This document shows, one piece after another, positions 43,701-49,700 of a DNA stretch of 64,000 nt. Within the stretch, counting starts at the first letter, position 1, and the number at the start of each line of letters is the position of its first letter. The stretch lies in the NCBI RefSeq assembly GCF_988242995.1, contig NZ_OZ547043.1; one strand, given 5' to 3'. A program made the position numbers.

Positions 43701-46700
43701 AGTGGCCAGGTAAAGTGGTAGAGGCCATTCTCCGGCTGACTAACAACGCTCCTGAGTACCTGCCCGTCGGGTTTAATCACGTCTAACCTGATGGGTTGAT
43801 CGGGCAATGCTTTACCATCTGCATCACGCAGTAAACCATTGAGGATGACTGTTTCACCAGGGCGATAAAGATCGCGCGGGCCAAACATAAAAAACTGTTT
43901 GCTATAGCCTGGCGCGCCAGCAATGTTAAATTCTGCTAAGTCCAGCGCTGGAAGTTTTAAATCGAGTAGCGTTGTCTGACCGTCTTTACGCGCCAGCAGT
44001 AATGCCGCGTTTTTATCATTTTCCAGCTGCACATGCCCCTGAGCGTCACTGGTTGCCTGAGTCAGAGTCTGCCCTTTCTCATTTAATAAAGAGACTTCAA
44101 TTCCTTGCTGGGCCGCGCCGTTTTCCAGACTTTGGGTAAAGATATCCAGACGATTGTGATAACGGTGAGCTGAAACGCCGATATCACTTAACGTAAACAG
44201 CGTCGCGGGATTACTGTAATCGTAACGTCCAGCCTGATTCATCACAGCCAGATACACGCCCGCCTGCTGAAGCGGTTTGATATCGCCCAGCGGCAGCAAT
44301 AATTTTTCACGGGTATTACGCGCAGGATTGAGATCAAACCGTCCGGTGTAGACCAGATCCGCCATCTGCAGCAGTTTGTCTGACTGCCAGTTCGCCAGCG
44401 AATTGCGGTATTCCCATTGGCTAATGAATGCTGGCAGAGATTCTGGCTTAACGCGGAAGAAGTTAACATCGACATTATTAACGTTGAGCGCCATTACCGG
44501 CAGCCCTTCAACGACTTTGCCAGGCAGCAGCGAACCACGGCTGGCAAAACCGACGCTGGGTTGGATGTCGCGGGTAGTTATAGTTTTTTCATAATCTTTA
44601 CTGAAGGTTGCGTTGTTGAGTGCTTTGACTTCCTTGCCAATAGTAACGATCAAATCACGTTTCGGTTCGAGGTGGCGTAAACGCAACTCTTTAAGATTAT
44701 CTGACAGCTCCCAGGCACCATCCACTTTGCCGATTTTCTTATCGACGACATGGATAACGCGTGAGAAATCCTGATCCGGGTCGAGAGGAATGGAGAACGT
44801 CAGCACCAGCGTGGCTGCGCCATCAAGTTGAACTTCAGAGAGATCCAGCAATGTCAGCGCCTTACCGGCACTCTGTTGGGCCAGTTTTTGTCGCTCCGGC
44901 GCGGAAAGTTTTGCTGAACTCACGTTTTCTGAAGAGGCCGCTTTAGTAACTTCAGAAGGCGCATCTTTTTTCACCGCTGTTGGCGCGTTATCGTTGTTGT
45001 CGCACCCTGCCAGCGCCAGCATTAGCATGCAGGCGGCTACGCGTAACTTTTTCATTTTTCATCCCTGCCACAATGGCCCGTTAGCAACGTCGAATAATTA
45101 TTATGCGTGAGAATTTACGTTATGTAATTCAGTATCACGCCCATACAATCCGAATTTTAGTGAGAATTGTGGCTCAGACAGCCAAATCAGCCTCTTTTGC
45201 TTGTCGCCTTTCACTAAACATCCGACAATTTAGCCTAACCCCGGCAAAAATGGAGATGCCTATGTCCACGACATGGTTTGTAGGAGCCGACTGGCTCGCC
45301 GAACATATTGATGACCCGGAAATTCAGATTATCGATGCCCGCATGGCGTCGCCTGGACAGGAAGATCGTAACGTTGCTCAGGAGTATCTGAATGGACATA
45401 TTCCCGGCGCAGTGTTTTTTGATATAGAAGCGCTTTCTGATCACACTTCCCCGCTTCCACACATGCTGCCGCGCCCGGAAACGTTCGCCGTGGCGATGCG
45501 TGAATTAGGCGTTAACCAGGATAAGCACCTGATTGTCTATGACGAAGGTAATCTTTTCTCAGCCCCACGAGCATGGTGGATGCTGCGCACCTTTGGTGTA
45601 GAGAAAGTGTCGATTCTGGGTGGTGGACTTGCAGGCTGGCAGCGTGATGATCTGCTATTAGAAGAAGGCGCAGTAGAACTGCCGGAAGGAGAGTTTAACG
45701 CCGCGTTTAATCCTGAAGCCGTGGTGAAAGTCACCGATGTGTTATTGGCAAGCCATGAAAATACGGCGCAAATTATCGATGCCCGCCCGGCTGCACGTTT
45801 TAACGCAGAAGTTGATGAACCTCGCCCAGGTTTACGTCGCGGACATATTCCCGGTGCATTGAACGTTCCGTGGACGGAACTGGTGCGCGAAGGCGAACTA
45901 AAAACGACCGATGAACTGGATGCGATATTTTTTGGTCGCGGCGTCAGCTATGACAAACCGATTATCGTCAGCTGCGGCTCTGGTGTAACGGCAGCCGTGG
46001 TTTTGTTGGCACTCGCGACACTTGATGTGCCAAACGTGAAACTGTACGACGGCGCATGGAGTGAATGGGGCGCACGAGCAGATTTACCGGTTGAGCCCGT
46101 AAAATAAGCTTTTTACAGGCAATAAAAAACCGCCGAATTTGGCGGTTTTTTATTGCTGGTCTGGTTCGCGGCCTTTCCAGCAGGTTGTATTACTGCAAGT
46201 GTATCTCGTCAACTCAATACTCGCTTTATGCATCAACGATGTCAAGTAGATAAAAAAGATAGATTTTGAATTCATTTGGCTTATCAGTCCGAATTCAGAC
46301 AAATATAAACAAATCCCGCTTAATATTAAAATATACTAACTGGTAAAAGATATTAGTTAAACGTGTAACTTCACTTTCTTTAAACAACAAAAAACCGCCA
46401 AAATCAGGCGGTTTTTTGTTGCTGGTCCGGTTCGCGGCCTTTCCAGCAGGTTGTATTACCGTAGTAATGCAAGCGCGTCTCAGCGGAGACAATACTCGCC
46501 AGTAACCCTCTTTTTGTCAAGCAAAAGAGAGTTATTATTGTTCTGTTAGTGTATTATCCACTGCGGCCCTTTCCGCCGTCTCGCAAGCGGGCGCTGGCTT
46601 AAGGAAAGGATGTTCCGCGACCGTTAGAGCAAGCGCGTCTCAGCGCTTGCTATCGCGGCAATATCGCCAGTGGTGCTGTCGTGATGCGGTCTTCGCATGG

Positions 46701-49700
46701 ACCGCACAATGAAGATACGGTGCTTTTGTATCGTACTTATTGTTTCTGGTGCGCTGTTAACCGAGGTAAATAATAACCGGAGTCTCTCCGGCAACAATTT
46801 ACTGGTGGTTAACAAACTTCAGAACAGCAGGTAAGCCCGAATGCCGCCCTTTGGGGCGGCATATTTTAGATTATCCGATGCTGTTTAAAGTCACGCAAAA
46901 AACCACCCCAGCGACGTTCATAGAATGGCGCAATATGTTCGGTAATAAAGTGGCTAATTCCTTTTTCCCCTTTTTTCACCTGACAAATATCGATGGGTTC
47001 ATCGCCAGGTAATGTATCGGTCGCTACACTTCCCGCCGCCTGAATAATTTCTTCGATATCACCATCGGCTTCAATGCCAATAAGTAAATTAGGCTGTGCC
47101 TCTTCGTTCTCTTTAATTGAACAAATAAAAGCACGCTTCACCGGCTTAATAGTTTTAAATAAGGTGGTGAGTGAATCAATCATTTGTGCTGGCGGCTCTG
47201 CGACTTCCGATAATATCAGCGATTCACCCCCTTCCAGTACTTCCTGGCTACTCAGCGGATTTCCTTCTTCACCAATCAACAAACTGATTTCACGCGGCAT
47301 AAATTCTTTACCGGTCGGCAGTTTGGCATTAAGGAAGAGCGTTTCGCCAAGGGTCATCTCAAACAATGTGCGAACGGGCATTACGACAAATGCCTGTTCG
47401 TCTTCAACCGCCTGTTGAAGTGCTTCTAACGAGGTAAAAAAAGGAATGACGCTGGTGCCGTCTTCTTTTTCCCAGTGCTGTAAATCAAGCGCGCTATCTT
47501 CAACCACAGCCTCGCCCTGCGCCGCCGTACCCGGCACCCAGACGGTGGATTCCAGTAGAGTACGGAAAAAGGCCGGGCGGTGCGCCGGTTCGGTTGCTGC
47601 TTTTTTCAGCAGATCTTCAAGTTCGTTTTTTGTTTCGGACATAAGAACCACAATTCATTCAACGTTCGGGGCACAAGTGCCTGATGCGCTACGCTTATCA
47701 GGCCTACAAGGGAATCTCAATCTATTGGATTTTCGCAATTTTGTAGGCCAAATAAGACGTTTACGCCGTTAACAGATTAGCAATCGTGCGCACACCAAGT
47801 CCCGTAGCACCCGCAGACCACTGTTCAACCGGCGCTTTACGGTAAGTCGCCGAGCAGTCGATATGCAGCCAGCCTTGCTGATAGTTCTCAACAAAGTGCG
47901 ACAGGAAGCCCGCCGCCGTGCTCGCGCCTGCCGGATACGCCGCGCTTCCGGTATTGTTCAGTTCCGCAAAGTTAGACGGCAGCTGGCTGCGGTGGAACTC
48001 CGCCAGCGGCAGACGCCAGAACGGTTCATTCTCCTGCGCGGCACTCGCCAGCAAGCGACCGGCAAGCGCATCGTCAAAACTGAACAGCGCGTGATAATCA
48101 TTACCCAGCGCAGTTTTCGCCGCCCCGGTGAGGGTCGCCGCATCAATGATCAGTTCCGGTTTCTGCGCACTGGCATCAATCAGGCCATCGGCCAGCACCA
48201 GACGCCCTTCGGCATCAGTGTTCATCACTTCAACTTTTTTACCGTTGCGATAGGTAATAATATCGCCCAGTTTGAACGCGTTGCCGCTGATCAGGTTATC
48301 CGCACAGCAGAGGAACAGCTTCACGCGCTTGTTCAGTCCGCGCGTAATGGCAAACGCCAGCGCCCCGGTAACCGTTGCCGCGCCGCCCATGTCCGACTTC
48401 ATCGAGTCCATTAATGCGGTCTGTTTGATACTGTAGCCGCCGGAATCAAAGGTGATGCCTTTACCAACCAGGCACGCGTACACTGGCGCTTCTTTATCGC
48501 CTGTTGGGTTGTAATCCAGCGCCAGCAATACCGGGGAACGTTCTGAACCGCGCCCGACCGTGTGCAGCCCCATATAACCTTGATCACGCAGATCTTCACC
48601 TTTGGTGATCCGATAAGTCACACGATCGCCTGCGACGTTGCTGATCAGATCAACAGCACGCTGTGCCAGTTGCGATGGACCCAGCTCTTCCGCCGGTGCG
48701 TTAATGGTGTCACGCACCCAGTCGATGATCATCAGGCGGTTATCCAGTTCCTGGCGCTGGGCATCGTCCAGATCCGGCCACTCCACTTTACGTGTGCCTT
48801 TCGGGGCTTTGTAACCTTGCCAGAATGCCCAGCAGCGATCCGCATCCCAGTCTTCACCGCTTAACTGAACATGCTTGATGCCCAGACCGTCAATCTTGCG
48901 CGCCGCACGCTGGATCAGCCCCAGATCGTCTGTCCCGTTCAAATGCAGGGTAATGCCATCATTATTAATGCTGTAAGTCGCTTTTTCTCCCCAGCGCGCG
49001 TCGGCAGGTTGGGTAGAGAGGGTAATCTTCATCGCTTCTGTCATTCTAGTTATCCTTCTTTGTAAAAGGGCCGCCAGTTGGCAGCCCCAGGATTTTTCCG
49101 CTAAATGATTCGCGTTGCAGGACAAAACGCATTGCGTTTTGAACAGCGCTTGCGCTGGCCCCGGAGGGGTGAGGCCAAAAGGCCGAATCACGCGGCAAGT
49201 GAGTGAAGCCCCAGGAGCATAGATAACTATGTGACTGGGGTGAACGAGCGCAGCCAACGCATCTGCGGCGTGAAGCATGACGCGGAAATTATTCGGCTTC
49301 GTCCAGCCAGACTAACAAAATCGCTTCGAGGATTTTCTCGTTGGATGCCTGCGGGTCGTCGTCGAAATCTTCCAGATCGCAAATCCACTGATGCATATCG
49401 GTGAATCGAACCGTTTTCGGATCAAGATCGGGATACGCATCGTACAGTGCTTCGCCAATTTCGCGGCTATCGGTCCACTTAAGTCCCATACTAACCTCTG
49501 TTAATGCTCACGCGCATGGTTGATAGTGTAACGCGGGATTTCGACCACTAAATCTTCGTCGGTAACGCGCGCCTGACAGCTTAAACGGCTTTCCGGCTCC
49601 AGTCCCCAGGCTTTGTCCAGCATGTCGTCTTCCTGCTCTGAGCTTTCCGGCAGCGAGTCAAAACCTTCGCGAACGATGCAGTGGCAGGTGGTGCAAGCAC

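Follow-up and report, generated by a model that had tools for sequence, protein, structure and literature searches.

The sseA-sseB spacer of Escherichia coli as a probable timPR toxin-antitoxin module with an additional antitoxin gene

The spacer between sseA and sseB was analyzed in a window of 64,000 nucleotides (64 kb) from contig NZ_OZ547043.1 of the RefSeq assembly GCF_988242995.1 (all positions below are those of this window), and we consider it very probable that this spacer (46108-46865, 758 nt according to the annotation and the list of open reading frames, ORFs) contains the timPR type I toxin-antitoxin module of enterobacteria together with one extra antitoxin gene. In this arrangement, a plus-strand timP mRNA would be translated into a 41-aa TimP with a hydrophobic N-terminal half, a divergent minus-strand gene (46389-46485) would give rise to the small RNA (sRNA) TimR, and a further unit (46124-46210) would represent another complete timR for which no matching timP is present here. 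The timP/TimR (ryfA) locus is already known and annotated, and the main finding only confirms the existing annotation. The complete spacer is 100% identical to that of E. coli ST2747 (NZ_CP007394.1), the record from which the RefSeq gene names were taken, and in some version it is found in 5425 of the 5426 complete E. coli genomes.

In Salmonella, ryfA is the mRNA of timP, which encodes a toxic, 38-aa protein of the inner membrane (PMC7667032, Andresen 2020). Its overexpression inhibits growth and leads to inner-membrane leakage, while base pairing of TimR, a divergently encoded sRNA, with the timP 5' untranslated region blocks translation, an interaction confirmed by compensatory mutants (PMC7667032).

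Identity of the timP transcript and peptide

An earlier note on this stretch, made without database searches, had placed ryfA in the spacer and proposed that a small hydrophobic ORF encodes TimP. Both proposals were borne out by family searches: the Rfam scan for RyfA suggested at that time gave a match to RF00126 (ryfA) of 312.8 bits, above the gathering score of 80, at 46563-46867 and over model positions 1-296 of 296, and the peptide matched the NCBIfam profile NF040796 (toxic_TimP) with 81.3 bits (cut-off 45; profile positions 1-39 of 40). RefSeq annotates timP at 46709-46834 with the product name "small toxic inner membrane protein TimP", and no Pfam family matched the 41-aa peptide. The features of the transcript are as follows:

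46563-46867, plus strand: timP mRNA, formerly ryfA sRNA, full-length match to RF00126
46709-46834, plus strand: timP coding sequence, 41 codons from ATG to stop (RefSeq WP_244440551.1)
46841-46867, plus strand: timP intrinsic terminator (Rfam structure), 9-bp stem with 7 G-C pairs, overlapping the sseB stop codon

By homology, the transcription start site (TSS) would lie at 46563-46565, and with +1 set at 46565 the timP mRNA is about 303 nt long (46565-46867, plus strand). The size, sequence and hydrophobicity first quoted for the ORF hold, with 41 codons and a mean Kyte-Doolittle hydropathy of +2.9 over residues 5-17 as against -1.0 over residues 21-41, i.e., a hydrophobic N-terminal and a polar C-terminal half. 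Its described end, 8 nt before a terminator hairpin, is true of the G+C core, the stem itself beginning at 46841, 6 nt past the stop codon. An alternative in-frame ATG at 46697, within stem-loop 4 (SL4) of the leader, would yield a 45-aa product, and this longer version of the ORF was used for strain CFT073 (PMC8205139). We favour the start at 46709, as the NF040796 alignment begins at this methionine, not at 46697, and as it agrees with the verified Salmonella start.

Conservation of the reading frame and the case for a non-coding RyfA

For comparison, one genome per species was scanned with the pattern GCGGTCNNNGCANNGACCGCAC, which resulted in 15 usable Enterobacterales loci from Escherichia, Citrobacter, Superficieibacter, Yersinia, Rahnella, and Erwinia, all with a ryfA match. 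The pattern was too permissive, most of its 120 matches being chance palindromes in G+C-rich genomes, and it returned no Salmonella locus. The timP ORF, whose conservation in relatives the earlier note had wished to see checked, runs uninterrupted in 16 of 16 loci (the window and the other 15) from six genera, codes for 38-42 aa with a conserved N-terminus (MK(I)R.CI.L.VSG), and differs in length between loci by whole codons. Eight 39-aa TimP sequences from different genera vary at 25, 17, and 32 sites in codon positions 1, 2, and 3, respectively (the 41-aa group, with its misaligned Rahnella sequence, was left out of this test); the Escherichia sequences alone vary at 8, 7, and 4 sites, which gives no coding signal.

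Several points weigh against a toxin-antitoxin module at this locus. The timP promoter hexamers match the consensus weakly and the TSS is set by homology alone; third positions show no excess of changes within Escherichia, and protein-level constraint is seen only across genera; the toxicity of the E. coli TimP "remains to be determined" (PMC13188913); phenotypes of ryfA in uropathogenic E. coli (UPEC) were complemented by ryfA alleles in which the ORF had been destroyed (PMC8205139); and no peptide was detected from ryfA1 of Shigella (PMC5333039). The last two findings equally favour the view that RyfA serves E. coli mainly as a non-coding regulatory sRNA, with roles in stress resistance, fimbriae and virulence, and that its ORF is incidental or rarely translated. 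The same view is helped by the mostly non-synonymous nature of the ORF changes within Escherichia and by the phenotype of a ryfA deletion in avian pathogenic E. coli (APEC), which was suppressed by an additional deletion of timR (PMC13188913). It has to contend, however, with a frame that stays open in all 16 loci of six genera despite changes in length, with the third-position excess across genera, with a peptide score well over the TimP profile cut-off, with leader control elements that are all kept from Salmonella (see below), and with the killing of E. coli cells by Salmonella timP in a FASTBAC-Seq screen. We see a mainly non-coding RyfA as a serious possibility, though one that we would not bet on, and it is compatible with a dual-function RNA. 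The ORF-disrupted alleles complement the UPEC phenotypes, and the RyfA RNA probably acts also independently of the peptide.

Control elements of the timP leader

The Salmonella timP leader folds into four stem-loops, with SL2 as the TimR site and the Shine-Dalgarno sequence in SL4 (PMC11228461, PMC13000454). Translation requires a 7-bp pseudoknot between SL1 and SL3 (sites 1 and 3; PMC11228461, Eleftheraki and Holmqvist 2024) as well as base pairs between site 2 and the SL4 5' arm (PMC11228461, PMC13000454), and the structural switch of the leader was described by Eleftheraki 2026 (PMC13000454). With +1 at 46565, the leader positions defined in Salmonella land on identical bases in the window:

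Salmonella G33/C34: 46597/46598
Salmonella C57, C58, and G59: 46621-46623
Salmonella G102/C103: 46666/46667
Salmonella G125: 46689
Salmonella C138: 46702
Salmonella ORF start at +145: 46709

The corresponding elements are:

46592-46598, plus strand: site 1, CGCUGGC, +28 to +34, upper SL1, pseudoknot partner of site 3, read from the sequence
46619-46624, plus strand: site 2, GACCGU, +55 to +60, complementary to the SL4 5' arm (46686-46691)
46629-46650, plus strand: SL2 with the TimR binding site (a 17-mer at 46629-46645), the TimR site of Salmonella
46666-46672, plus strand: site 3, GCCAGUG, +102 to +108, SL3 loop, read from the sequence
46686-46705, plus strand: SL4, sequestering the Shine-Dalgarno GGA at 46699-46701

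Sites 1 and 3 match over seven base pairs (46592-46598 with 46666-46672), site 2 and the GCGGUC of SL4 form six pairs, one of them G-U, and both SL2 and SL4 are present in the Rfam structure line as well as in the minimum free energy fold. The pseudoknot, the pairing between site 2 and SL4, and the trapped Shine-Dalgarno sequence thus appear to be kept in the window. By analogy with Salmonella, the Shine-Dalgarno sequence of the timP mRNA would be locked in SL4, translation would need the SL1-SL3 pseudoknot together with a duplex between site 2 and the SL4 5' arm, and the TimR 5' end would pair with SL2 (46629-46645), disrupt the active fold and block translation. That the peptide is toxic, that TimR represses it and that the leader undergoes the structural switch is likewise presumed for the window locus on the strength of the Salmonella work.

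Two timR units in the spacer

The earlier note had described two direct repeats, each led by an A-run, a hairpin and a T-run, together with a third partial copy, and had suggested a local duplication. The repeat and palindrome lists agree with this for the two units and for the duplication: 46124-46193 and 46390-46459 are 70-nt direct repeats with 87% identity, 266 nt apart, the homology widens to about 150 nt in a gapped alignment (46111-46259 vs. 46378-46530), and both units open with an A-run/GC-hairpin/T-run palindrome. Its reading of the hairpins that open the units as bidirectional terminators was right, but it overlooked that the units have the make-up of complete timR genes on the minus strand:

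46389-46485, minus strand: unit 2, predicted timR, cognate antitoxin sRNA of type A, about 97 nt, predicted start at about 46485, hairpin and U6
46492-46520, minus strand: timR (unit 2) promoter, -35 TTGACA (46520-46515), 17-nt spacer, -10 GAGTAT (46497-46492)
46124-46210, minus strand: unit 1, predicted second TimR-like sRNA gene of type C, about 87 nt, TSS at about 46210, 3' end at 46124, hairpin and U6
46217-46245, minus strand: unit 1 promoter, -35 TTGACA (46245-46240), 17-nt spacer, -10 GAGTAT (46222-46217)
46119-46156, both strands: palindrome 1 (inverted repeat I3), 19-nt arms 46119-46137 and 46138-46156, 95% complementary
46385-46421, both strands: palindrome 2 (inverted repeat I4), 15-nt arms 46385-46399 and 46407-46421, 100% complementary, 7-nt loop

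The ends of the units were set after the K-12 timR annotation, with a start 7 nt past the -10 element and an RNA ending in U6. The arrangement TTGACA-17-GAGTAT recurs in nearly all Escherichia TimR units examined, with two single-base variants among about 20, and RefSeq annotates neither unit in this genome.

Since the first 17 nt of unit 2 are a perfect complement of timP +65 to +81 and its 5' 30 nt form a predicted duplex with the leader of the resident timP at a free energy (dG) of -43.7 kcal/mol (shuffles -22.2 +/- 3.0, z -7.2), unit 2 is predicted to be the cognate TimR, with SL2 as its target. For unit 1, the 5' 30 nt (GACGAGAUACACUUGC) reach a dG of -20.1 against the same leader (shuffles -18.1 +/- 2.8), a predicted pairing that is no better than chance. 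All duplex energies were obtained with the 5' 30 nt of TimR only; folding of the full-length TimR-leader duplex was dropped, as it gave long, loop-rich structures that were uninterpretable. The complementarity of unit 2 shows on the plus strand as an exact 17-mer, GCAAGCGCGTCTCAGCG, at 46469-46485 and again at 46629-46645, and none of 100 shuffles of the window reached as many matches. The "third partial copy" is the TimR target SL2 in the timP leader.

In minus-strand folds, both palindromes form a terminal hairpin followed by U6, and palindromes 1 and 2 are the modelled terminators of the sseA-proximal TimR-like gene and of the cognate timR, respectively. Palindrome 1 starts 12 nt past the sseA stop codon and probably also terminates sseA on the plus strand, so that the unit 1 terminator would serve both genes; termination by the hairpins in both directions is no more than a by-product. 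A consensus terminator scan listed neither of the two, which we attribute to the pairing of the A-run with the T-run, and they were therefore assessed from the palindrome list and by folding.

It could be argued from the symmetry of the hairpins, from the location of the first one directly behind sseA, and from the lack of RefSeq annotation there in this genome that the units are mere duplicated intrinsic terminators or repeat debris without any sRNA gene. This is highly improbable in view of the perfect -35 and conserved -10 elements that each unit has at a 17-nt spacing on the minus strand, the exact complementarity of the unit 2 5' end to SL2, the annotation of the homologous K-12 unit as timR, and the transcripts known from Shigella (PMC5333039), from Salmonella (PMC7667032) and from E. 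coli, where TimR was detected by northern blot in strains CFT073 and CH138 (PMC13188913). It is also at odds with the covariation of the 5' ends with SL2 across genera: 12 of the 15 other loci have a divergent TimR, the 5' end of which varies and complements the SL2 of its own locus by 10-17 exact nt, an independent reproduction of a published claim.

Specificity types and the second timR

In Shigella dysenteriae, the tandem pairs ryfA1/ryfB1 and ryfA2/ryfB2 produce RyfB1 and RyfB2 transcripts divergent from ryfA1 and ryfA2 (PMC5333039, Fris 2017), and SL2's "variable region", five nucleotides long, has been found in the versions CACCC, CCCCC, CGCGT, and TGTTT (PMC5333039). Specificity types were defined here from 15 Escherichia loci, and genomes were counted among the 5426 complete E. 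coli genomes:

Type A, SL2 variable region CGCGT: window, N66, M11957, E. whittamii
Type B, SL2 variable region TGTTT: K-12, CFT073, EC96
Type C, SL2 variable region TGTAT (GCAAGUGUAUCUCGUC): TUM14759, MSB1_4I
Type D, SL2 variable region CACCC: O157:H7, SCPM-O-B-8794, Escherichia sp. E1V33

TimR/timP thus occurs in E. coli in four or more specificity types, and a spare, non-cognate antitoxin gene is retained at some loci. Loci with two timR genes have one cognate and one non-cognate copy, and the cognate copy is the proximal or the distal one depending on the strain. The type-A allele of the window is found with at least 99% identity over 71 nt in 1807 genomes and the type-C timP allele in 41. 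Strain M11957 shares the architecture of the window locus. Unit 1 shares its 5' 30 nt with the sseA-proximal unit of the type-C strains TUM14759 and MSB1_4I, where this unit is cognate to the timP of the same locus (dG -34.1) and the timP-proximal unit is non-cognate (dG -21.9). The type-C unit occurs in 394 of the 5426 genomes, is annotated in none of them, and is at least 95% identical to unit 1 in all 394 copies. Because the unit is present in 394 genomes but the timP allele in 41, about 350 genomes, that of the window included, have a TimR-C gene without a type-C timP at this locus. No target of the type-C 5' end was found elsewhere in the 64-kb window.

The corresponding locus of K-12 MG1655, where RefSeq annotates ryfA (b4440), timP (b4812) and timR (b4811), shares its two-unit architecture and IS128 filler with the window. 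The annotated K-12 timR is the sseA-proximal unit, homologous in position to unit 1, and is cognate to the TGTTT SL2 allele of K-12 (dG -40.4), whereas in the window the cognate TimR is timP-proximal and the sseA-proximal unit represents a third specificity. The timP-proximal unit of K-12 (locus L002, 1382-1478, with timP at 1558) is identical to unit 2 over its 5' 30 nt and pairs more weakly with the K-12 timP, largely through G-U wobbles (dG -33.1, z about -3.7), and on these predictions both K-12 TimR RNAs may act on timP. A further difference is a 15-nt leader stub from a second timP, which follows unit 1 in K-12 and is absent from the window.

Many genomes have a 492-nt spacer with a single unit, 266 nt shorter and thus by one repeat spacing. 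Because of these single-unit spacers, the tandem copies of Shigella and the leader stub of K-12, a tandem duplication of timR-timP followed by the loss of one timP is the simplest history, and unit 1 would be its leftover.

Whether unit 1 is kept for a function is a separate matter. It may well be a selectively neutral remnant, perhaps transcribed, without a target, and kept only since its hairpin terminates sseA, a view to which we give appreciable but not prevailing weight. Its chance-level pairing with the resident timP, the absence of any other match to its target sequence in the window, the roughly 350 genomes that have it but not the matching timP allele, and the many genomes reduced to one unit would all be expected of such a remnant. 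Less expected are a promoter, a terminator and a 5' 30 nt that are identical to the cognate copy in TUM14759 and MSB1_4I, and the identity of at least 95% to the window's copy throughout the 394 genomes. We also consider, as a rather unlikely proposal, that timPR of E. coli is a polymorphic specificity system in which the spare TimR is possibly maintained; the spare copy might neutralise incoming or recombinant timP alleles, allow a switch of specificity, or regulate other targets. No paper describing a non-cognate spare timR in E. coli was found in the literature searched.

The IS128 filler and the TimR core

The AT-rich filler between the two units corresponds to another Rfam family:

46253-46431, plus strand: IS128 RNA (RF00125), running into the unit 2 hairpin

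The match scored 163.3 bits (gathering score 80) and has an internal gap of about 30 model positions close to its 5' end, and the 3' hairpin of IS128 is the timR terminator on the opposite strand. The filler was considered as a decayed second timP and rejected, its local alignment to timP being no better than that of shuffles (z -1.1); in K-12, only the 15-nt leader stub matches timP. The K-12 filler (locus L002, 1236-1381) is preceded by a timP-type promoter region and the stub, and a second copy of timP that has been decapitated may give rise to IS128 as its transcript.

On the minus strand (46434-46450 and 46168-46184), the internal loop of TimR, CUGGAAAGGCCGC, hardly changes between Escherichia and Yersinia, Rahnella or Erwinia, with a single one-base variant, while the 5' end varies freely. 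This core is the complement, in E. coli, of GGCCCUUUCC at the 5' end of timP. A second pairing site with the timP 5' end is not supported because the two do not covary: the core stays constant while GGCCCUUUCC becomes UUUUC or UUUAC in other genera. A protein-binding site or the fold of TimR itself are possible reasons for the conservation of the core.

Surroundings and rearrangements of the locus

The length of 758 nt given earlier for the spacer agrees with its boundaries:

45262-46107, plus strand: sseA, 3-mercaptopyruvate sulfurtransferase, left boundary (RefSeq NZ_CP007394.1, ORF list)
46866-47642, minus strand: sseB, right boundary (RefSeq)

Between sseA and timP, E. coli strains carry differing insertion sequences, namely ISEcB1 (IS3-family), IS1A, and an IS200/IS605 tnpA (loci L006, 92-1449; L132, 1620-2317; L127, 1-297), which suggests that this part of the spacer is a hot spot for insertion and rearrangement. 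In E. coli 06-00048 (L006, about 1500-1660) and Citrobacter amalonaticus (L083, 8069-8200), the timR body, read on its plus strand, is fused directly to the SL2 of timP, and the same fusion was seen in Yersinia aleksiciae (L119) and Y. similis (L074). It looks like a deletion between direct repeats, i.e., the TimR 5'-end region and SL2. As both promoters are lost together with SL1 and site 2, no translation of timP is expected in these genomes; RefSeq annotates timP in 06-00048 despite the fusion. In Y. similis, Rfam Ysr224 matched with 133.9 bits directly upstream of the ryfA match (L074, 4361-4467, plus strand), on a timR-like plus strand, and Ysr224 may be related to the timR locus.

The other Rfam matches at the gathering score in the window were STnc490 (11894-12017, minus strand), sroE (33363-33454, minus strand), the iscRS stability element (54286-54395, minus strand), and a weak match to AaHKsRNA22 (49115-49187, plus strand) in or near pepB, none of which has a connection to the timP/TimR locus.

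Comparison with known systems and implications

The window locus shares with timP-TimR of Salmonella (formerly ryfA/STnc2070) the Rfam and NCBIfam families, the sseB flank and a divergent TimR directed to SL2. The Salmonella peptide has 38 aa instead of 41 aa and a different C-terminal half, and STM2534 lies between sseA and timP there; the window has two timR genes, and the toxicity and repression of its allele are predicted. Like S. dysenteriae, the window has duplicated divergent sRNA genes with a specificity set by the five-nucleotide SL2 variable region, and its allele CGCGT is one of the published "ryfA1-like" versions. In contrast, Shigella has retained both ryfA copies and the window one timP, and the type-C version TGTAT is not among the four in PMC5333039. 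The E. coli pairs tisB/istR-1, shoB/ohsC, zorO/orzO, and dinQ/agrB resemble timPR in having a small hydrophobic toxin and an adjoining divergent sRNA that pairs with the 5' untranslated region far upstream of the ribosome binding site, whereas timP differs from them by an mRNA without need for nucleolytic processing and by the Sec-type signal-like N-terminus of its product (PMC7667032, PMC11228461).

As a core gene of E. coli, found in 5425 of 5426 complete genomes, timP would represent a type I system with an unusual, processing-free RNA switch. What the analysis adds to the annotation is that the reiterated units are probable antitoxin genes, that the timP-proximal one alone is predicted to be cognate here, and that the cognate copy varies by strain. 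The overlap of the Rfam IS128 "sRNA" with the timR terminator on the opposite strand is a correction for annotation. Removing the timP-adjacent "timR" would take out the cognate antitoxin in this genome but not in K-12, a difference that bears on how the phenotypes of timR and ryfA deletions in pathogenic E. coli are to be read.

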